Source: Escherichia phage haarsle. From it: a DNA stretch of 48,613 nucleotides. The notes under the pieces are model-generated. The model was not told the DNA's origin and made no database searches. It saw only the letters and a list, made by a program, of their open reading frames with translations. The DNA is taken from the sequence record NC_049828.1. The stretch is one strand, 5' to 3'. This document shows positions 12,469 through 45,894 of this stretch, piece after piece (position 1 is the stretch's first letter; each line of letters begins with the position of its first letter). Both the position numbers and the translations under genes were made by a program.

Positions 12469-12488
12469 CGTTTAACAAAAAATGCTAT
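12469..12488 (-). promoter_or_regulatory. Reverse-oriented module copy M1 (ATAGCATTTTTTGTTAAACG on the minus strand) inside the rightward head operon
   Basis: 20-mer present without the canonical 22-bp spacing; may instead contribute TTGCAC-16-TATCAT plus-strand promoter for the capsid gene. Confidence 0.45.
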
Positions 12489-16204: not shown

Positions 16205-16248
16205 ATGCTACACGATTCATAATCAATTCTTTTAACAAAAAGTGCTAT
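16205..16248 (-). promoter_or_regulatory. Reverse-oriented module M2 (antisense to the tail operon), -10-like TAGCAT
   Basis: 20-mer at 16229-16248 in minus orientation with a 22-bp spacer; would transcribe antisense into the major tail gene. Confidence 0.45.
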
Positions 16249-26814: not shown

Positions 26815-26857
26815 ACTATACACGATCCGACAAGCGGCGTTTAGCAAAAAGTGCTAT
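26815..26857 (-). promoter_or_regulatory. Promoter-like module M3 (variant ATAGCACTTTTTGCTAAAC, TATAGT)
   Basis: Minus-strand 20-mer at 26839-26857, 21-bp spacer, -10-like; drives the lipoprotein cassette. Confidence 0.55.
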
Positions 26858-35048: not shown

Positions 35049-35522
35049 TTAGCAATTAGTGCTTTCAGGTTTATACAGGAATCCGCCAGGCTCATAATCT
35101 GACATTCTTACCACTCGCAACATTTCACGCTTATCACATCTCTTTGTGAGCGGTTTGCCATTGGAATCAAATCGCAGGTCTGGGCGGCAGAATGATGCGC
35201 GATAGCCTTGACATCCATATTTTTTGTAATCGTTATGCACCTTTTGAGCGCCAGCGGCTGAAATCATACCGCGAACACGCCACTGATTTACAGTTTGCTG
35301 GCTAACGTTAAGACGTTTTGCCATTGCTGACACACTTCCGTAATACTCAATAAGGATGTCAAGACGTGCTTTTAGTCCGGCGCGCACTTCATCTTTTAGT
35401 ACATAATATCCTGTAGGGCGCTTGCGTTTCTTCTTATCCTTGCCTCGTCTGGTTCCGTTATTGCCATTAATTGTGCGCTTGTCAATCTTGCCAGTTGATA
35501 CTGCGATTCGCTGTTCTTTCAT
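35049..35522 (-). CDS. helix-turn-helix DNA-binding protein (157 aa)
   Basis: HTH-like segment AMAKRLNVSQQTVNQW and basic N-terminus; RBS GGAG. Confidence 0.55.
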   Translation of the reverse strand: MKEQRIAVSTGKIDKRTINGNNGTRRGKDKKKRKRPTGYYVLKDEVRAGLKARLDILIEYYGSVSAMAKRLNVSQQTVNQWRVRGMISAAGAQKVHNDYKKYGCQGYRASFCRPDLRFDSNGKPLTKRCDKREMLRVVRMSDYEPGGFLYKPESTNC

Positions 35523-35534
35523 TACTCATTCTCC

Positions 35535-35578
35535 AATAGCATTTTTTGTTAAACGATGATTTAATGATTGTGTATTAT
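35535..35578 (+). promoter_or_regulatory. Promoter-like module P8 (ATAGCATTTTTTGTTAAACG, TATTAT) in the divergent region
   Basis: 20-mer at 35535-35554 with 21-22 bp spacer to a -10-like hexamer; upstream of the helicase gene. Confidence 0.5.
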
Positions 35579-35611
35579 ACACGCCAAATGGCATTACTCA
35601 AAGGTTTTAGA

Positions 35612-37657
35612 ATGATTCCAAACATTGAAAAGCAAATATCAGCACTTGGTGAAGCGGTAATTAAATCCATTCAGGAGCGATTCACTGTTGGCGATATTGT
35701 GCCTTACCCTTACCAGTGCGTTGCATACGCTGAGATCGCAAAGCGTATGAAAAATTATAAGCATCCATTCTTTGTTAAAGCGTCGGTATCGGCTGGCAAA
35801 ACATTGATGTTTGCAATGGTTGCTCACCAGTGCCGGAAAATGGGCTTGAAAATGATGGTCCTTGCTCGCCAGGCTGAGATTGTTGATCAGGATTCTGAAG
35901 AGATAACAAATCTTGGCGTTCCGAACTCAATCTATTGCGCAGGGCTGAAGACAAAAAGCGCATACTTTCCTATCGTTGTTGGTTCTGAGGGCACTGTAGT
36001 TAATGGACTATTTAAAGCGCTTGGCGACTATGTTCCGCACGTTATCGGGATTGACGAGTGTCACCAGGTGGATTGGGAAGACCTTGCCGACGCAATAGAG
36101 AAAGACGAGTCATTTTTACAAATGACGACAAAGAAAGGCGAAAAAGTACCAAATCCAGATTATGACATAACAAAGGGAAGCAGGAACAGAAATACAGAGT
36201 TCCTGATTGGTGAGGATGGCTTTCCAATGGAGGGAACAGGCCGCACGCAATACACTGTCATTATCATGGAAATGATGCGACGTTGCAGGAAAGCATACTG
36301 TCATGAACTGCGCATATTTGGTATGACTGGATCGGAGTTTCGCGGTGTAGTCCCAATACTGGTAGAAGATAAAAAGCAGAAAGGATTTTGGCGTGAACAG
36401 GTTACTAATATTGACACCAACTACCTGATCAAGTTCGGTTCTGTTGTTCCGACTAATTTTGGCGACGTTGGCGATCTCGGGTATGACCTTTCAGAGTTTG
36501 AGGCATCCAGTGAGGATGGCGTTGCAGACTTTGACGCTAAAACGCTTCGTAGGATGGAACAAAAAATTCATGAAGAAGCGACCATGACAAAGCGCATCAT
36601 GGCGAAAGTGCACGAGATCTGTAAAAACCGTAACGGTGTACTTGTGACATGTGCAGGTGAAAGGCACTGCAAAGAGGCAGCGGCAGCATTGCCACCTGAA
36701 ACGACTTACAGGATCATTACTGGTAAGACTGGCGATAACCAGCGCAAGGAGTGGTTGAAAGAAGCATACGAGGGAAAGGTTAAATACATCTTCCAGGTGC
36801 AGGCGCTAACTACTGGCGTTAACGTGCCGTTTTGGGATACGTCTGTTATTCTGCGTAAGATTGGATCTCTTACGTTGCTGATTCAGCTTTTAGGTCGCGG
36901 AATGCGACTACTTAAGAAGTGGCATAAGGAGCAAGGATTCCAGAAGGATGATCATCTAGTCATGGATTTTTCAGGAACGATGGACGAGCTAGGGGAGCTT
37001 TATTTTGATCCGATACTGGAACAGGCGCAGCACCAGAAGAGATTTAGGAACGGTAAAGATCCGAAGCCTTGTCCTGTTTGCGGAACTCTTAACAGCTATT
37101 ATGCTCGTCGTTGTATGAACGTAGACGAAAACGGCAACAGATGCGAGTGGTTCTTTAAATTCAGGACATGTGATGATCAGATTGACCCGCGCACTAAAAA
37201 GATTATTCATCGCGGTTGCGGAACGAAGAATGATATTGCGGCCAGGGTATGCAGACATTGCGACATGTCATTGATTGACCCTAACGAGAAGTTAAGCGGA
37301 AAGCACTACACAAAAAACGACTGGTTCCATGTGCAATCTTTCGCGGTTGATATGACTAAAAACCAGAAAGGGATAATATTTAATTATGAGCTTTCCGATG
37401 GCATAGATACTTTCAAGGCGAGAGAGATATTTTTCCCTGAATCTGAGAGCCAAATTTGCCGCGCAAAATGGCGAAGCGTTGCTCTTAAACACATACCAGA
37501 TCGCCGCATTGCTGGTATGGTGGCGAGCTATCGCAATGCGCGTAAAATCATGCAATATGTGAATCACATCATGCCGCCATCGCGCGTGACTCACCGCAAG
37601 ACTAGCAAGGGCGAAGATAATTTGTACAAGAAGGAATTTAATTATGGCAATGACTGA
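35612..37657 (+). CDS. superfamily-2 DNA helicase (Walker A SAGKT, DECH box) with C-terminal zinc ribbon (681 aa)
   Basis: Motifs read from the translation; start at MIPNIEK. Confidence 0.7.
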   Translation: MIPNIEKQISALGEAVIKSIQERFTVGDIVPYPYQCVAYAEIAKRMKNYKHPFFVKASVSAGKTLMFAMVAHQCRKMGLKMMVLARQAEIVDQDSEEITNLGVPNSIYCAGLKTKSAYFPIVVGSEGTVVNGLFKALGDYVPHVIGIDECHQVDWEDLADAIEKDESFLQMTTKKGEKVPNPDYDITKGSRNRNTEFLIGEDGFPMEGTGRTQYTVIIMEMMRRCRKAYCHELRIFGMTGSEFRGVVPILVEDKKQKGFWREQVTNIDTNYLIKFGSVVPTNFGDVGDLGYDLSEFEASSEDGVADFDAKTLRRMEQKIHEEATMTKRIMAKVHEICKNRNGVLVTCAGERHCKEAAAALPPETTYRIITGKTGDNQRKEWLKEAYEGKVKYIFQVQALTTGVNVPFWDTSVILRKIGSLTLLIQLLGRGMRLLKKWHKEQGFQKDDHLVMDFSGTMDELGELYFDPILEQAQHQKRFRNGKDPKPCPVCGTLNSYYARRCMNVDENGNRCEWFFKFRTCDDQIDPRTKKIIHRGCGTKNDIAARVCRHCDMSLIDPNEKLSGKHYTKNDWFHVQSFAVDMTKNQKGIIFNYELSDGIDTFKAREIFFPESESQICRAKWRSVALKHIPDRRIAGMVASYRNARKIMQYVNHIMPPSRVTHRKTSKGEDNLYKKEFNYGND

Positions 37658-38843: not shown

Positions 38844-39083
38844 ATGCAGAAAGAAAGAAGCGTTTATTTAAATGAAACTGGAGAGTGGTTGTTATTTCGC
38901 GCTATGGTTTGCGAGGCGCTTGATAAAAACGATTTCATAAAACCGCTATTAGGTTGCGATCCGTGGGAGTTTACAAGCGCGCTTGATATGAGCTTTGAGG
39001 AAACAAGAAAACTACCGCTTGAAAAATGGCATGAGCAGATCGGTAAAGACTTGCAAGAGTTTTACGAATCCGCGTCAAAATAG
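38844..39083 (+). CDS. hypothetical protein (79 aa)
   Basis: ATG 38844 with RBS GGAG; stop TAG lies inside module P7. Confidence 0.5.
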   Translation: MQKERSVYLNETGEWLLFRAMVCEALDKNDFIKPLLGCDPWEFTSALDMSFEETRKLPLEKWHEQIGKDLQEFYESASK

Positions 39084-39123
39084 CACTTTTTGTTAAAACG
39101 CCCGGCCTTGTGTCGGGCATAAT
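39080..39123 (+). promoter_or_regulatory. Promoter-like module P7 (dyad GCCCGGCCTTGTGTCGGGC, CATAAT)
   Basis: 20-mer at 39080-39099; 22-bp spacer; leader box TCATCAAAACGA. Confidence 0.6.
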
Positions 39124-39155: not shown

Positions 39156-39335
39156 ATGGTTGTTTACGATCCACGCGCTTTTAAAATTGCTCAAGAAGTT
39201 TCACGCGAGTCTGTTGCTGGCGGTTCGGTTAACGGCTATCAGTTTGATTGGTCGGCAGCAATGACCTTGCTTAAGGTTGCATATGGTCACGCGCCAATTG
39301 AAACAGCGGAGGAATATTATAAGCATGAAGGTTGA
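39156..39335 (+). CDS. small hypothetical protein (59 aa)
   Basis: ATG after RBS AAGAGGAAAAC. Confidence 0.45.
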   Translation: MVVYDPRAFKIAQEVSRESVAGGSVNGYQFDWSAAMTLLKVAYGHAPIETAEEYYKHEG

Positions 39336-39567
39336 GCAAGGTAGGCAGGCTGTATGGGATCACGCAAAGGAATGCGGGATCGCAGAAGACATATCCAGGA
39401 TAGCGAAATATTTTGATATTGCTGACATAAGCATTATCAGCGGCGACAAAATGACATTTCTCAATGAACGCCCGCGCAAGATGCATCGCGTACCAGCAAT
39501 ACCAACAAAGATTGATTTCAAAGAGGCTATGGCGAAAATTCGCGAGCCGCGCAAATACTACAAATGA
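39325..39567 (+). CDS. hypothetical protein (80 aa)
   Basis: Coupled start overlapping the upstream stop. Confidence 0.45.
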   Translation: MKVEQGRQAVWDHAKECGIAEDISRIAKYFDIADISIISGDKMTFLNERPRKMHRVPAIPTKIDFKEAMAKIREPRKYYK

Positions 39568-39665
39568 GGATTATTATCATGTGGCGTTTGTTACTTTTGC
39601 CCTTACCTGTTATGATGGCGATCTCTATTGTATATGTTGTCATAATGAAATAAGGAGAATTTTTG

Positions 39666-40781
39666 ATGAAGCAAATCAAAATCACAGATGAACAATTTAT
39701 CAATGAGCGCAAGCAGGGAAAGACATATAAGCAGATCGCTAATGAGTATGGCATGAACGTTCGCAGCATTGAGCGCCGCGCGGCACGATTAGCAAAGCAA
39801 GGTAAAGTTACAACCATCGGATCACCTGGTTTTGGTGTTACTGGAGAATCAAAGCTAATTGATCAAGATGGCAATGTGGTTATGACATGGATTAAGACAA
39901 GCAAGGACCGCGAACAGTTAGAAGCATTAATGCAGGCCGCTATGGATGCATTTAGCGAAGAAGTTCCGCGACTTGATCCGCAACCAGAATCACAAAAGGA
40001 TTATAGCGAGACGTTATCACTGTATCCGATCTTTGATATGCACTTGGGCGCAATGGCGCATAAGCATGAATGCGGAGAGAATTGGGATACAGCAACAGCA
40101 GAGCGCGTAATGAATAATTTCATTGATTATTCCATCCAGTGCGCGCCGGATAGTGAAAAAGCTGTCTTGCTGATTGGTGGTGATATGCTTCACAGCGACG
40201 GACTGGAGGCGGTAACACCTGCAAGCGGTCACGTATTGGATCAAGATAGTCGATACGCAAAACTTGTTTACGTTGCCATCCGGTCAGTGCGTCGGGCAAT
40301 AGCAAAGCTGTTATCAAAACACAAAAACGTCGAGATTCAGATAATTGAAGGCAACCACGACCAAAGCGGCATGATCTGGTTGCGCGCAGCAATGGCGGCA
40401 GCATATGAGAATGAGCCGCGAGTGCATGTTGATGTGTCTCCGCGAGTAGTTCATCACACACAATATGGCAAAACATTCCTGGCATACCATCATGGGCACA
40501 CTATCCGCAAGCCTGAAACATTGCTCATGATGTGCGCGGCAGACTGGCGCGAAGACTTCGGAAATTCAAAAATGATGTATGCTCACGTAGGGCACTGGCA
40601 TCATCAGACAGTAACTGAAACAAGCCTGGGCATTGTTGAAGTGCATAGCACTATGGCGGCAAAAGATGCATATGCGGCGCGCGGTGGATGGCGTTCCCGT
40701 CGCCGTGCGGCTGTTATTGTTTACGATAAAGAATACGGAGAAGTAGGGCGATTTATGCATTATCCAGAAATGGCTGATTGA
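39666..40781 (+). CDS. HTH domain - metallophosphoesterase fusion protein (371 aa)
   Basis: N-terminal HTH-like TYKQIANEYGMNVRSIERR; phosphoesterase-like motifs GGDMLHSDG, GNHD, HHGH; RBS AAGGAG. Confidence 0.5.
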   Translation: MKQIKITDEQFINERKQGKTYKQIANEYGMNVRSIERRAARLAKQGKVTTIGSPGFGVTGESKLIDQDGNVVMTWIKTSKDREQLEALMQAAMDAFSEEVPRLDPQPESQKDYSETLSLYPIFDMHLGAMAHKHECGENWDTATAERVMNNFIDYSIQCAPDSEKAVLLIGGDMLHSDGLEAVTPASGHVLDQDSRYAKLVYVAIRSVRRAIAKLLSKHKNVEIQIIEGNHDQSGMIWLRAAMAAAYENEPRVHVDVSPRVVHHTQYGKTFLAYHHGHTIRKPETLLMMCAADWREDFGNSKMMYAHVGHWHHQTVTETSLGIVEVHSTMAAKDAYAARGGWRSRRRAAVIVYDKEYGEVGRFMHYPEMAD

Positions 40782-40825
40782 ACTTTTAATTATTAAAATA
40801 CCAATATAAATCATAAATTTAATTG

Positions 40826-40860
40826 GGCGAGGCATTTTGCTTTGCCCTTTTTTTATTCCT
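40826..40860 (+). terminator. Terminator (GC stem, T7)
   Basis: GGGCGAGGCATTTTGCTTTGCCC followed by TTTTTTTATT. Confidence 0.55.
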
Positions 40861-40927
40861 TTTTATGCGTTCAATGGTTAGGATACAATCAATTAATTGT
40901 TGACTTTTATTTACAGGAGATCTAATC

Positions 40928-41143
40928 ATGAAAGATTTTTTAAACGCTGCAACTTCCGGCACTGGCGGCGCGTCAATCACTGGCGCGGTAACTGGTCAAA
41001 CAACCATTGCAATAGCCAGCTTCGTTTTGATGGCTGCATTTGGTATGTGGGGGGCTTATCTTCGCTGGCGTGATAGTAAGGCGCTACGTGACGCGCTTGA
41101 ATGCGGAGATATTAAGAAAGCTATTGAAATCAGGGGTAAATAA
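40928..41143 (+). CDS. holin (putative pinholin, 71 aa, one TM helix)
   Basis: Small TM protein directly upstream of the SAR endolysin. Confidence 0.6.
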
Positions 41144-41631
41144 TGAGCATAAAACAAAGAGTGACCGCTGCGGCTTTTGGCGTTGCTCTTGCTCTTACTT
41201 CTCCGTTGCTGGAGGAAATAGAAGGAGTAAAATATAAGCCGTACAAAGATATTGCTGGAATATGGACGGTTTGCGCCGGAATAACTGGACCTGACGTAAT
41301 ACCAGGTAAGACGTACACGCAGAGAGAATGCGATGCGCTACTGGCAAAGCATATCAAGATCGCAAAGGATGAAGTTGATAAGCGTGTTAATGTTGATATT
41401 CCTGATACAATGCGCGCGGCAATGTATTCATTCACATACAATGCTGGCACTGGTGCTTTTAGAAATTCAACCATGCTTAAGCTGATTAATAACGGTCGTT
41501 ATATGGAAGCGTGCGAGCAGTTATGGCGATGGACAAAATACACCAATCCAAAAACAGGAAAGAAAGAAACGTCTAAAGGACTGCGAAACCGCCGCGCTGT
41601 GGAATTTAAATATTGCATTAAGGATCTGTAA
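41143..41631 (+). CDS. SAR endolysin (lysozyme, phage P21 R-like, 162 aa)
   Basis: N-terminal signal-anchor-release segment; [23 protein letters not shown] closely resembles P21 R as recalled. Confidence 0.85.
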
Positions 41632-41633
41632 TT

Positions 41634-42032
41634 ATGAGAAAGTTATCAATAATCGTGATCGCTGTTATTTTGTCTGGATGTTCAAGCGTTATGCCACTGA
41701 CCGGATTAATCGGTAGTAAGCCGGAAATCACAGCACAGGCAGGAGCGGAGAACGTAAAGCAGACCGTTGGCGTTACCGCAAAGCAGGACACCAGCACAAA
41801 ACAGGAAACTACAATAAAGGAATCTGCGGTTGATAAGGTGGACACTTCCAGCAAGAAGGATTTTACTACGTCAACCATTCAGGCTAACACCATCAAGGCT
41901 GATAAAATCCAGGTCGTGCAAGGTGGGCAAAGGAATTGGTACGATCCTATAATCTATTGCGCGGCAATTTTTAGTGGTCTTTTGTCAATGCTTTACTTTT
42001 CCTACCGCAAAGGCAACAAAAAGGAGGCTTAA
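41634..42032 (+). CDS. unimolecular spanin (132 aa; N-terminal lipoprotein signal LSGC plus C-terminal TM helix)
   Basis: Lipobox at the N-terminus and hydrophobic C-terminal segment, the architecture described for the T1 u-spanin. Confidence 0.7.
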   Translation: MRKLSIIVIAVILSGCSSVMPLTGLIGSKPEITAQAGAENVKQTVGVTAKQDTSTKQETTIKESAVDKVDTSSKKDFTTSTIQANTIKADKIQVVQGGQRNWYDPIIYCAAIFSGLLSMLYFSYRKGNKKEA

Positions 42033-42856: not shown

Positions 42857-44440
42857 TTACCCCAGCAATGTTGGATTTACAAAAACAACGCCATTAATCA
42901 CACAAATATAATTTCTTTCTTCAAGCATCGGCAGCAGTTGCGTTTCCATACGCTTCATTACGCCAGCCTGGCCAACAAACGGCTTAACTTTTCGTGCAGC
43001 CTCATATATGGCGCGCACATTCAAGATCCCCTTGTTAGCCTTACCGTGTCGAGTGATGATCTCGATTAGTTTACCCATTTCAGCATCATCACCAGCATAG
43101 CCAGAAGCGTTGGCGGCGCTAATGTATGTTTTGCTCAACTCGCTAAACATCAGCAATGCTTCCTGAACGGTTTCAACCTCAATCTCTTTCGACTTCTGAG
43201 GGTATCCACCAGGATTAAACCAATTGCGGATAGTGTGCAAAACCGAAGCAATCCTGATCACCTGCTTATCCATTTTGCCAAGCGCACCTCGCAGCATTGT
43301 ATGCGAATACTTTCCGCCATCAGCAAGATGCGGTTCCATCTCCTGACGAGCCATGTTAAGCACTCGCATTGCGGATTTGCTGATCTTAAGCTGGATGCTT
43401 GATTCGCTCATGATGTTATGGATCAGCTTAAAATATTGGCTTTTCAGTTCTCCATCAACAGGTTCATAAGTCGAATCACCGTTATCATCAACAAATTTTC
43501 GACGACCTAAAAATGATTCTTCACGCACAAGCAAATAACGTTCACTCACACCGATACCGCGCGATCCTGCATCCATGATGGCATTAATTGTTTCATCCTG
43601 GGCAATTACTGCCATACAGCCAAGAGCTTTAAAACTCATGTTATTGTCTGCGTTTGCGCGAGCTATAGAAACATGACCGTGATCCCATGCTTTCAGCACA
43701 AGTTCGCTGTTGGTTTTACGTTCGCTATTTGCATATGTCAGACCTAAAAGGCTGTTAATACTCGTTGCCTCGTCTGAAATTACAGCAAAGTTACCCTGGC
43801 GATTGTTGATTCTTGCAAGTCCTTCAGGTGTGGTATCGGACACAGGGAAAACAATGTCACACATCTTTTCAAGTTTTTCTTCAAGATCTTCTTTCTCCTG
43901 GTATAGCGATTCCATATCAGCGCCAGATCGCTCGCTTTTCATCTCTTTTGCAAGACCTGCCAACTTTGCCTGAATCTTTTTCCGCTCCTTCTTTCGCTGA
44001 TCATTAATTCTTTCCACTTCAGCAACCATAGGAGCAAGAGCCAGGCTGTTAACGGCAGATTTACCAGTTGAAGGAGGCTGGCTTGTGACAACATAAAGAG
44101 CGGTTGGCTGATCCGTTCCGTGATACTCAACCGTGAATCGCCCAAGCATTGCAGCAGACACACAGCCGATAAAATGCATATATGCCGATGATTCAGGGAA
44201 TTGAACAGATCGAGCAATGTTTCGCGCCAACTTTCCAACAACATCAACATCATTGCCAAGAGAAATTACAGGGTAGCGATCGTTTCCGTTATTAACATCA
44301 TTAACCTCACCCCAAAAGCTGGACGATTGACGGTATCCGTTAGCCTGAATGGACACGCGCACCGGAGACAATCCTTGTGCATCAGCTAATTCGATAATTT
44401 GTTTTGGTGTTAGTTTATTGGTTTCAAACGAAAAATTCAT
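42857..44440 (-). CDS. P-loop NTPase-like protein of unknown function (527 aa; Walker A SQPPSTGKS)
   Basis: Start at MNFSFE with RBS AAAGGAG; Walker A read from the translation. Confidence 0.5.
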   Translation of the reverse strand: MNFSFETNKLTPKQIIELADAQGLSPVRVSIQANGYRQSSSFWGEVNDVNNGNDRYPVISLGNDVDVVGKLARNIARSVQFPESSAYMHFIGCVSAAMLGRFTVEYHGTDQPTALYVVTSQPPSTGKSAVNSLALAPMVAEVERINDQRKKERKKIQAKLAGLAKEMKSERSGADMESLYQEKEDLEEKLEKMCDIVFPVSDTTPEGLARINNRQGNFAVISDEATSINSLLGLTYANSERKTNSELVLKAWDHGHVSIARANADNNMSFKALGCMAVIAQDETINAIMDAGSRGIGVSERYLLVREESFLGRRKFVDDNGDSTYEPVDGELKSQYFKLIHNIMSESSIQLKISKSAMRVLNMARQEMEPHLADGGKYSHTMLRGALGKMDKQVIRIASVLHTIRNWFNPGGYPQKSKEIEVETVQEALLMFSELSKTYISAANASGYAGDDAEMGKLIEIITRHGKANKGILNVRAIYEAARKVKPFVGQAGVMKRMETQLLPMLEERNYICVINGVVFVNPTLLG

Positions 44441-44467
44441 TGATGATAACTCCTTTTTGATGCGGCA

Positions 44468-44511
44468 ATAATACCGCACCAATGCTACCCGCATTTAACA
44501 AAAAATGCTAT
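44468..44511 (-). promoter_or_regulatory. Promoter-like module M5 (ATAGCATTTTTTGTTAAATG, TATTAT)
   Basis: 20-mer at 44492-44511 overlapping the TAG stop at 44508-44510; 22-bp spacer. Confidence 0.55.
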
Positions 44512-44729
44512 TTTATCCGCTCTATGCTAACTAAGATTTTTTCTGGTTCCTTTGCACTATGGCAATGCGCGGTTACAGAATCAACAAAATCAAAGTAAAG
44601 TGATTTGTGATATGAGAATCCAATCAGCCACCCAACCATCGTTTTCTTTATTGGCCTGACTACATCGCCAGGCTTGAAGGTTTTTGTTGCTGAATAAGTC
44701 ACCTTATAGCGATATTCAGTCTTGATCAC
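44508..44729 (-). CDS. hypothetical protein (73 aa)
   Basis: ORF with coupled ATGA overlap. Confidence 0.5.
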   Translation of the reverse strand: MIKTEYRYKVTYSATKTFKPGDVVRPIKKTMVGWLIGFSYHKSLYFDFVDSVTAHCHSAKEPEKILVSIERIK

Positions 44730-45112
44730 TTATACATAGCCTCAAACAAATGACAGCCACCAGCGGAAAACCCTACTTCTTCGCGGTATAGCGTCCAGCG
44801 GTCGCCAGCTTCATCAAACACATAACCAGCAACAGCGCCAAGCGCGCGGCCTTGCTCAATCTGGTAGCGCTTTCCTTCTTTGAAATGCTTTTTACAAGGG
44901 ATCTTGTGATCTACAAAGGTGCATTTAATTGTTTTTGTCTTGATATGACGATAGTCAGACTCAACAGCGTTTTGCCACTTACTACCCTTTGTAATGCTCT
45001 TTACCTGGAATTGTTCCAACTCGATCACATCATCGCTACCAGCAATTTTTTCGTATACAGCTTTATAACGACCGTTCATCAAAACGTTGGTTTTATTGCA
45101 GATAACTTTCAT
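44726..45112 (-). CDS. hypothetical protein (128 aa)
   Basis: RBS AAGGAGAAATAA; downstream of module M6. Confidence 0.55.
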   Translation of the reverse strand: MKVICNKTNVLMNGRYKAVYEKIAGSDDVIELEQFQVKSITKGSKWQNAVESDYRHIKTKTIKCTFVDHKIPCKKHFKEGKRYQIEQGRALGAVAGYVFDEAGDRWTLYREEVGFSAGGCHLFEAMYK

Positions 45113-45143
45113 CGTTTATTTCTCCTTTCGTTTCGGTGAAGTG

Positions 45144-45187
45144 ATTATGCCAGGCTTTTACACCTGGCTTTTAACAAAAAGTGCTAT
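45144..45187 (-). promoter_or_regulatory. Promoter-like module M6 (dyad GCCAGGTGTAAAAGCCTGGC, CATAAT)
   Basis: 20-mer at 45168-45187 overlapping the TAG stop of the cytosine methyltransferase gene; dyad nearly identical to that of P1 and holds two CCWGG sites. Confidence 0.6.
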
Positions 45188-45894
45188 TTTGCGTTAGCTT
45201 CAAAGATTGCGCGAGCAAAACCGCGCGGTGTTAGGGAGCGGATCATCTTTGTACGAGATGATTTTCCGCCAGTTTTGGCCCAGCCAGGATTATCCTTGTC
45301 GTCCTCTTTCGGTAGGATCGTTGCGCGCGGAGGAATAACAAATCCGTTACCAGTCCAAAGGCATGTTTTCTTAAAGTACCGATCCCGCGCCGGAATAATA
45401 TCAGGGAAGTCGGGATGTTTATCATCTTCCGGCAGATAGCCAGCGTAATCGCACGGATGGAACGTATAATCAGGCTTACGCCATAACGTTGACAGCTTGC
45501 CTACAGGATTCTCTATCATGTAAGGAACACCGAAATAATCAGCGATATGCGCGGCTATTTTGCAAGTGTCGGCGGCCTCATTTTGGAAGTTAGGATTTTC
45601 CATGCGCTTTTTAGCCCAATGGCGAGATCCGCTGTTTGCTAATTGTGTGCAAGGTGGGAAGGCCATAATGAAATCAGGCTTACCCCAATTTTCAAGTTTT
45701 GCGGTATATTTGAATAGATCATCAATCCACACATTAACGTAAAAAATGTTATCATGGATTATGCGCACTGATTGGTAATCGCCGTGATCGGCATCATCGT
45801 AATTAAAGCAAATGCATTTATAACCAGCATCAGCCCAATCTTTAACAGCCTTACCAGATCCATCAAACAAAGAGAAAATTAAACCTTTATACAT
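45184..45894 (-). CDS. DNA (cytosine-5)-methyltransferase (236 aa)
   Basis: Motif I FDGSG, motif IV PPCTQ (Pro-Cys), motif VI ENV (MIENPVG). Confidence 0.7.
   Translation of the reverse strand: MYKGLIFSLFDGSGKAVKDWADAGYKCICFNYDDADHGDYQSVRIIHDNIFYVNVWIDDLFKYTAKLENWGKPDFIMAFPPCTQLANSGSRHWAKKRMENPNFQNEAADTCKIAAHIADYFGVPYMIENPVGKLSTLWRKPDYTFHPCDYAGYLPEDDKHPDFPDIIPARDRYFKKTCLWTGNGFVIPPRATILPKEDDKDNPGWAKTGGKSSRTKMIRSLTPRGFARAIFEANAK

Follow-up and report, generated by a model that had tools for sequence, protein, structure and literature searches.

The gene considered here lies on the + strand of Escherichia phage haarsle (NC_049828.1), a T1-like coliphage (Hanrivervirus) whose 48,613 nucleotides (nt) form the window of this analysis. 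At 39666..40781, it encodes a protein of 371 amino acids (aa, plus stop codon) that joins an N-terminal helix-turn-helix (HTH) to a metallophosphoesterase (MPE) core. On balance, we favor reading this protein as a Mn2+-dependent DNA nuclease that would be tethered to DNA by its HTH and serve phage replication, recombination, or repair, possibly also host-DNA breakdown. The gene was assigned from the list of open reading frames (ORFs) with their translations, from its phage T1 orthologue ST16, and from its membership in PHROG family 704. The reading frame runs from an ATG at 39666 to a stop codon ending at 40781. An in-frame TTG at 39663 is a possible alternative start, but the ATG is preferred because a Shine-Dalgarno sequence, AAGGAG at 39652-39657, sits 8 nt ahead of it. 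Every peptide string quoted in a preliminary description of this DNA was located in the product. The same description had placed the gene upstream of the lysis cassette, and indeed holin (40928-41143), endolysin (41143-41631), and spanin (41634-42032) come directly after it.

Between the HTH-MPE gene and the holin gene, a terminator scan finds a strong intrinsic terminator-like hairpin with a 10-bp stem (6 GC pairs) and a T-run (40825..40857 on the + strand, hairpin 40825-40847); the T1 record carries an annotated terminator at the equivalent site after ST16. Upstream, the gene order is helicase (35546-37657), a VRR-NUC-like homolog of T1 ST21, Dam, two small ORFs, and the HTH-MPE gene, and the window is syntenic with T1. 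The small ORFs, both on the + strand (39156-39335, 59 aa; 39325-39567, 80 aa), apparently share a transcript with the HTH-MPE gene. T1 ST18 weakly matches 39180-39317, while the counterpart of 39325-39567 is gp71 of Escherichia phage aalborv. A probable promoter of this three-gene unit (39078..39123, + strand) is composed of AAATAGCACTTTTTGTTAAA at 39078-39097, which is a copy of a repeat discussed below, a GC hairpin spacer, and the -10-like hexamer CATAAT at 39118-39123. A further + strand site at 39588..39616 (TTGTTA, 17 nt, TG-TATGAT) might be the HTH-MPE gene's own promoter; it is a consensus match to sigma-70 only, from a pattern scan that found 8 sites with 10 expected by chance.

The gene is real and strongly conserved and no chance ORF. 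Its product matches the PHROG 704 profile ("DNA repair exonuclease") with an E of 6e-151 (aa 5-370 against profile positions 3-389 of 390) and shares 57% aa identity with its orthologue ST16. At the nt level, it is 99.6% identical to gp70 of aalborv (Drexlerviridae, Hanrivervirus), annotated "DNA repair exonuclease", and 97-98% identical to genes of many other T1-like phages, labeled "putative phosphoesterase" or "DNA repair exonuclease". As a full-length representative of the PHROG 704/T1 ST16 family, the window protein is 99% identical to deposited proteins and encoded at the same pre-lysis position, with essentially no difference beyond a C-terminus that is five residues shorter. It ends in ...PEMAD (40767-40781; 371 aa), its closest relatives at 99% identity in ...PEMADRTFNY (376 aa), a trivial shift of the stop codon. 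It is a persistent core gene, and its placement ahead of the holin, endolysin, and spanin genes is reported for 508 of 522 Drexlerviridae (PMC13164509). Both the gene and its place before the lysis cassette are already catalogued: It is an ordinary core Drexlerviridae gene of a large HTH-MPE family, and the window adds nothing new to it because its copy is 99% identical to deposited, annotated genes.

The preliminary description regarded a DNA-binding domain fused to a phosphoesterase as unusual. It is, on the contrary, how the members of a very large phage family spanning many lineages are normally built, nearly all of them carrying the HTH. An exhaustive HMMER search yielded 4,639 representative clusters (50% identity) at E<=1e-3, 1,040 of them at E<=1e-30, and tblastn placed the protein in 2,040 phage records. 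Most members found with HMMER are 370-420 aa long and therefore have an N-terminal extension like that of the window protein. Longer members also begin with an HTH, and one has two HTHs; a few members of the family lack it, such as Campylobacter F352_151 (317 aa, PHROG 704 positions 78-389). Carriers include Drexlerviridae, Dhillonvirus, Kagunavirus, Jerseyvirus, and Klebsiella Jedunavirus; phages of Vibrio, Rhizobium, Roseobacter, and Flavobacterium; Campylobacter Eucampyvirinae; a T7-like Pantoea phage; the temperate lambdoid phages mEp010 and mEp013; and E. coli prophages. The depositor of the Pantoea phage, Nifs112, labeled the product "HTH and metallophosphatase domains containing protein". 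Among viral proteins, the structural neighbors are uncharacterized MPEs of 370-500 aa from phages of both Gram-negative and Gram-positive hosts. The family name itself rests on remote homology, not on experiment, and our literature searches found no genetic or escape-mutant evidence on the gene in T1-like phages.

T1-like phages are notorious laboratory contaminants. Twenty megablast records labeled Campylobacter phage (e.g., C4, MG065657, 49,946 bp) and the record "Streptococcus phage MBBL140" carry the coliphage-type gene, with 79-95% protein identity and T1-sized genomes. These carriers are probably T1-like contaminants or mislabeled records.

The catalytic core (aa 116-365; 40011..40760, + strand), of calcineurin-like type, is delineated by its motifs and by an AlphaFold2 model. 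The model was built from an 86-sequence alignment and is predicted with confidence (mean pLDDT 92.3, pTM 0.76). Along the + strand, the motifs are DxH (40035-40043; within FDMH, aa 123-126), GDxxH (GGDMLHSDG, aa 171-179; 40176-40202), GNHD (aa 229-232; 40350-40361), HHGH (aa 275-278; 40488-40499), and GHWHH (HVGHWHH, aa 307-313; 40584-40604). The metal motifs of the superfamily (PF00149 clan) are thus all present, as D124-x-H126, G172-D173, G229-N230-H231-D232, H276/H278, and G309-H310-x-H312, on a β-sandwich MPE fold. Over the 86 homologs, which reach down to about 32% identity, D124, H126, D173, T184, D192, N230, H231, H276, G309, and H312 are invariant, while H176, D178, D194, R196, H278, H310, D334, and R346 are conserved in at least 90%. 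Seven metal ligands (D124, H126, D173, N230, H231, H276, and H312) therefore fall into the invariant class and two, H278 and H310, into the second. An active site kept across all these homologs clearly indicates an enzyme under catalytic selection, and the metal-binding residues proposed in the preliminary description hold up on careful alignment.

Pfam covers this divergent family thinly. On the window protein, Metallophos scores 14.6 bits (E 0.046) and does not reach the gathering cut-off of 21.5; at E<=0.01 it matches 19 of the 86 homologs (best 1.9e-5). Between motifs II and III, the alignments reveal a family-specific, almost invariant segment, VTPASGHVLDQDSRYAK (VTPxSGHxLDxDxRxxK, aa 183-199; 40212..40262, + strand). 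It contains the invariant T184 and D192 and the highly conserved D194 and R196, and H189 is at least 90% conserved in 10- and 14-sequence alignments. Neither Mre11 nor DP1 nor any other MPE is known to us to have a counterpart of this segment, which might take part in substrate binding or serve as an extra catalytic element.

The N-terminal domain (aa 8-44; 39687..39797, + strand) is a three-helix HTH, with AlphaFold2 helices at aa 8-16, 21-28, and 32-44; its string TYKQIANEYGMNVRSIERRAARLAK corresponds to aa 20-44 (nt 39723-39797). On the window protein alone, Pfam matches stay below their cut-offs: HTH_28 has an E of 0.0023 and 18.4 bits against a cut-off of 25, and Sigma70_r4_2 reaches 12.8 bits against 25.7. 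Across the 86 homologs, Sigma70_r4_2 occurs in 15 (best 1.5e-9), HTH_1 in 14, and HTH_8 (best 1.8e-6), HTH_28, and HTH_23 in 11 each, with GerE reaching 2.4e-8. Against the Protein Data Bank (PDB), the family profile gives weak, sub-significant matches to GerE, RhlR, DesR, and sigma-H. The domain is tentatively placed with the LuxR/GerE or sigma-70 region 4 type and is predicted to bind DNA. Charge varies along the protein, with a basic stretch in the first 50 aa (pI 10.3), an acidic connector (pI 4.3), and a nearly neutral core. The connector (aa 56-99; 39831..39962, + strand) is modeled as a β-hairpin (56-80) and a long helix (82-99), and the alignments show W75, K77, and T78 to be conserved in it.

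A resemblance to sigma-70 region 4 and LuxR would also suit a sequence-specific transcription factor that acts on a repeat of T1-type phages, governs the transcription program of the phage, and uses its MPE as a sensor or second activity. The motif in question, ATAGCACTTTTTGTTAAA, occurs in 16 copies in the window at up to 3 mismatches, with 0.13 expected by chance. Seven copies are on the + strand (1196, 1659, 2643, 3986, 35536, 38060, and 39080) and nine on the - strand (12471, 16231, 26840, 42327, 44494, 45170, 47089, 47595, and 48469). As the 21-nt repeat aaATAGCACnnnTTGnTAAAA, it was published for TLS, T1, Rtp, and Rogue1; its describers suggested that it acts as a stoperator, enhancer site, or UP element, and no binder is known (PMC11447400). 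The literal 20-mer string returned no paper in a full-text search, and the TLS paper describes the motif with degenerate positions (PMC11447400). T1 has 13-15 copies. In nearly all 16 copies of the window, a -10-like hexamer (CATAAT, TATAAT, TATTAT, or TACATT) lies about 21 nt past TTGTTA. The spacer between repeat and hexamer is variable and frequently forms a GC hairpin; in the T1 GenBank record, this hairpin is annotated as a rho-independent terminator. The hexamer is followed by a conserved CATCGAAACGA-like leader. Taken together, the elements resemble a phage-specific composite promoter, or terminator-promoter, whose -35 region and spacing are non-canonical. The repeat paper mentions neither the fixed -10 element nor the hairpin spacer (PMC11447400).

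The HTH-MPE gene's own unit lies downstream of the repeat copy at 39078-39097, which probably drives it; moreover, the gene belongs to the core of Drexlerviridae (PMC13164509), a family in which the repeat is present as well. These points speak for a role of the HTH on the repeat, and the preliminary description had named the protein as a candidate binder. The distribution of the motif, however, does not follow that of the protein. The motif is confined to T1-like phages; no copy occurs, even at 3 mismatches, in the complete genomes of mEp013, Jerseyvirus SeF1, and Dhillonvirus SD276, all of which encode the HTH-MPE protein. In its HTH (aa 20-46), mEp013 shares 63% identity with the window protein, compared with 52% in T1, which does have the motif, 48% in SD276, and 44% in SeF1. 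As judged from these sequences, HTH conservation tracks overall divergence and not motif presence. Furthermore, the catalytic site is under strict selection. The suggestion of a 20-mer binder is therefore unsupported, since motif-free genomes keep the HTH, T7-like carriers use their own RNA polymerase, and a homolog of T1 ST23 is available as a candidate binder. We rate the transcription-factor reading as very improbable.

This ST23 homolog (35097-35522, - strand) shares 60% identity with the T1 "transcriptional regulator" and is a small Cro/YdaS-like HTH protein encoded between primase and helicase, beside the repeat copy at 35536. It is a more conventional repeat-binder candidate than the HTH-MPE protein.

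Nucleases come first in two structure searches, the second of which, with Foldseek, agrees with the first. The small-molecule phosphodiesterases MJ0936 (14.0), LpxH (13.7), YfcE (12.8), and Rv0805 and GpdQ (both 12.5) are interleaved with or close behind them, and the PPP protein phosphatases rank far lower (about 9). This ranking favors a nuclease, though it falls short of proof. It bears likewise on a protein Ser/Thr/Tyr phosphatase that would reprogram host proteins in the manner of lambda PP (NinI). Such an enzyme would belong to the same superfamily with the same metal-binding motifs, and lambdoid phages carry an MPE-type phosphatase; with the PPP enzymes so far down the ranking, we give this reading hardly any credence.

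An enzyme that hydrolyzes nucleotide second messengers or other small phosphodiesters, acting in anti-defense or nucleotide-pool control and using its HTH for autoregulation or localization only, would accord with the preliminary description, which had listed a regulator that also hydrolyzes a nucleotide signal as one candidate. We found no positive evidence for it. The PADLOC models of defense and counter-defense systems returned no family at E<=1, no anti-signaling phosphodiesterase with an obligatory DNA-binding domain is known whereas the HTH is kept family-wide here, and nucleases lead both structure searches. A signal hydrolase thus appears improbable.

The nearest relatives in structure are Mre11/SbcD and DP1, the archaeal 3'-5' proofreading exonuclease subunit of PolD, yet the window protein belongs to neither. 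A single-sequence PDB search gave nothing relevant; in the profile search, T. maritima Mre11 appears at a sub-significant E of 0.7, and neither Pfam nor NCBIfam yields an SbcD/Mre11 match, so membership in that family was rejected. Unlike Mre11/SbcD, the window protein has its additional elements at the N-terminus, where an HTH is present, and an insert particular to its family separates motifs II and III. No C-terminal capping domain is seen in the AlphaFold2 secondary structure, the protein ending at aa 371 right after the last MPE strands. A Rad50/SbcC ATPase partner is likewise missing from the T1 genome, which is fully annotated, and from the annotated 10.5 kb of aalborv that surround the gene. 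DP1 membership was rejected as well, as the window protein has neither an OB-fold nor a DP2 partner; identity is about 15%, and host range and biological context are entirely different. A DP1-like editing 3'-5' exonuclease could still aid the host replisome by trimming mismatched or blocked 3' ends during phage synthesis, in a setting where T1-like phages have a primase and helicases and lack a DNA polymerase. We see only a slim chance for this proofreading role.

Functional parallels with experimental data exist among phage MPEs. A1 of phage T5, a predicted metallophosphatase, is necessary and sufficient for host DNA degradation and has double-strand-break repair nucleases and polymerase proofreading subunits as structural neighbors (bioRxiv 10.64898/2026.04.02.716235). 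Like the window protein, A1 is thus a phage MPE with nuclease-type neighbors, and some of its relatives carry an N-terminal HTH; the two families also show local SNHD/GNHD...S.WL similarity near motif III. In contrast to the window protein, A1 is 556 aa long and the product of a pre-early gene, and its partner is a distinct DNA-binding protein, A2. Aligned by hhalign with A1, alone and as a 22-sequence profile, the similarity extends over 19-22 columns at motif III with a probability of 15-20% (profile-profile, 20% over 22 columns), and A1 is absent from the top 50 viral structural neighbors of the window protein. A fused equivalent of A2 and A1 was rejected as homology, given that A1 matched in 19-22 columns only and nothing matched A2; the functional analogy is kept. 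At least 5 of 22 sampled A1 relatives bear an N-terminal HTH (HTH_23, HTH_38, HTH_7, or CENP-B_N); these are 45-48% identical to A1, with the HTH replacing the first ~70 residues. Because an HTH occurs both in these relatives and in a separate family, the fusion of HTH and MPE arose, on sequence grounds, more than once, independently in the A1 relatives.

A second parallel is gp48 of mycobacteriophage A10ZJ24, an MPE and homolog of Bxb1 gp47. It was shown to break down linear, plasmid, and genomic DNA in vitro and to impair the integrity of the host genome in vivo (PMC12287305). The Cluster A mycobacteriophage MPEs resemble the window protein as phage MPEs with shown DNase activity, sited among replication genes, whereas Bxb1 gp47 has 255 aa, lacks an HTH, and maps to phrog_221. 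Homology was rejected here too (hhalign probability 13%). PHROG assigns the window family to 704, T5 A1 to 1745, and Bxb1 gp47 to 221; with low hhalign probabilities and different PHROGs, the three are separate MPE families and the analogy is functional only.

That an MPE nuclease can act without a Rad50-like partner is illustrated by the Pseudomonas putida MPE/PdeM, described as a stand-alone Mn2+-dependent enzyme (PMC7826289). Weak local matches of this type occur near motif III (TIGR04123, E 2.9e-4, score 20 against a cut-off of 150; 6nvo, E 1.3). The window protein is no member, however, PdeM being a ligase-associated single-stranded DNA endonuclease of a bacterial repair operon without an HTH.

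The genomic contexts of other carriers share DNA metabolism as a recurrent theme. In lambdoid mEp013, the gene lies between replication protein O and a DNA helicase. In T7-like Nifs112, it follows a 5'-3' exonuclease, an HNH endonuclease, and endonuclease VII and precedes a phosphatase, a deoxynucleoside monophosphate kinase, and a ligase. In Campylobacter F352, it comes after a Holliday junction resolvase and a DNA ligase, and in Geezett it lies downstream of a primase. In Jersey-like, Vibrio, Rhizobium, and Dhillon-like phages, its neighbors are structural, lysis, or terminase genes, and an HNH homing endonuclease is often encoded next to it. A Q-like late antiterminator, an idea raised by the pre-lysis position, was rejected in view of the mEp013 location between O and helicase and the presence of the family in T7-like phages.

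Combining these lines, we propose that the enzyme would be a binuclear-metal, probably Mn2+, phosphodiesterase acting on DNA. With a catalytic core closest in structure to Mre11/SbcD and the PolD DP1 exonuclease, it would function as a stand-alone enzyme, held on DNA by its own LuxR/sigma-4-type HTH in place of a Rad50/SbcC partner. It would share its transcription with genes of replication and DNA modification (helicase, VRR-NUC-like, Dam), starting at a T1-type promoter and ending at the pre-lysis terminator. Its role would most likely be in phage DNA metabolism, where it could prepare DNA ends or intermediates that replication and recombination use; virulent T1-like phages might also employ it to break down the host chromosome and feed nucleotide salvage. 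The nuclease that the preliminary description had offered as one candidate stands as far as nearest structures and DNA-metabolic contexts go. Demonstrated here are the ORF, its domain architecture, an intact and invariant active site, the fold, how large and widespread the family is, and its genomic contexts, while we infer DNA as the substrate, HTH binding without strong sequence specificity, and the biological role. The transcription factor, the protein phosphatase, the signal hydrolase, and the proofreader are all less likely than an HTH-tethered DNA nuclease.

A host-chromosome-degrading function of T1 was reportedly defined genetically in 1981 through high-transduction mutants and, to our knowledge, has not yet been tied to an ORF. 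The HTH-MPE protein could conceivably be this very function, its HTH steering the nuclease to host rather than phage DNA, but we regard this more specific identification as doubtful. T1 is known to break down the host chromosome, and transduction is raised in mutants that fail to do so (refs 46 and 47 in PMC11447400).

The HTH-MPE proteins are among the most widespread phage enzyme families never assayed, with thousands of clusters. They are encoded by a core T1-like gene and occur also in T7-like, lambdoid, Jersey-like, Vibrio, Rhizobium, Campylobacter, and Gram-positive phages. Their database names ("DNA repair exonuclease", "DNA polymerase II small subunit", "proof-reading exonuclease", and "oxidoreductase") are guesses, and knowledge of the substrate would correct the annotation of thousands of genomes. 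It could also reveal the nuclease behind T1 host-DNA breakdown and generalized transduction, which is relevant to phage-therapy safety, as T1-like phages are common therapeutic candidates as well as laboratory contaminants. If the protein is indeed the host-chromosome-degrading function of T1, HTH-tethered MPEs would, together with T5 A1 and mycobacteriophage gp48, represent a general convergent phage tool for host-genome destruction and nucleotide salvage. In that case, the HTH-MPE protein would also be a likely source of danger signals (e.g., m6dAMP) sensed by Metis-type defenses against T1-like phages. The phosphoesterases in two preprints on m6dAMP-sensing defense were considered and set aside, being host defense effectors and not the HTH-MPE phage protein.

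Some further observations concern the surroundings of the gene. An HNH homing-endonuclease gene is adjacent or within two genes in T1 (ST15), SeF1 (SeF1_025), Vibrio (0034), and Nifs112 (ORF30). Its presence near the HTH-MPE gene in four unrelated phages suggests a recurrent homing-endonuclease landing site. None stands beside the gene in the window, where 40782-40927 holds the terminator only. In Dhillonvirus SD276, the gene (44061-45203) follows the lysis cassette and lies just before the small terminase gene across the circular junction, and in the aalborv record roughly 350 bp separate it from one terminus of the deposit. We considered from these two positions whether the gene is connected with genome ends or packaging and saw no evidence for it.

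Copies of the repeat also occur within the structural module (12471-12488, 16231-16248, and 26840-26857, - strand), as they do in T1 (15069 and 18833, - strand). They are intergenic between + strand genes and in opposite orientation, as checked for 12471 and 16231, which contradicts the published claim that repeat orientation always matches that of transcription. On the + strand, the opposed copies read TGCTATCAT or TGCTATTCT, resembling an extended -10 element directed towards the late genes; they could also be antisense promoters.

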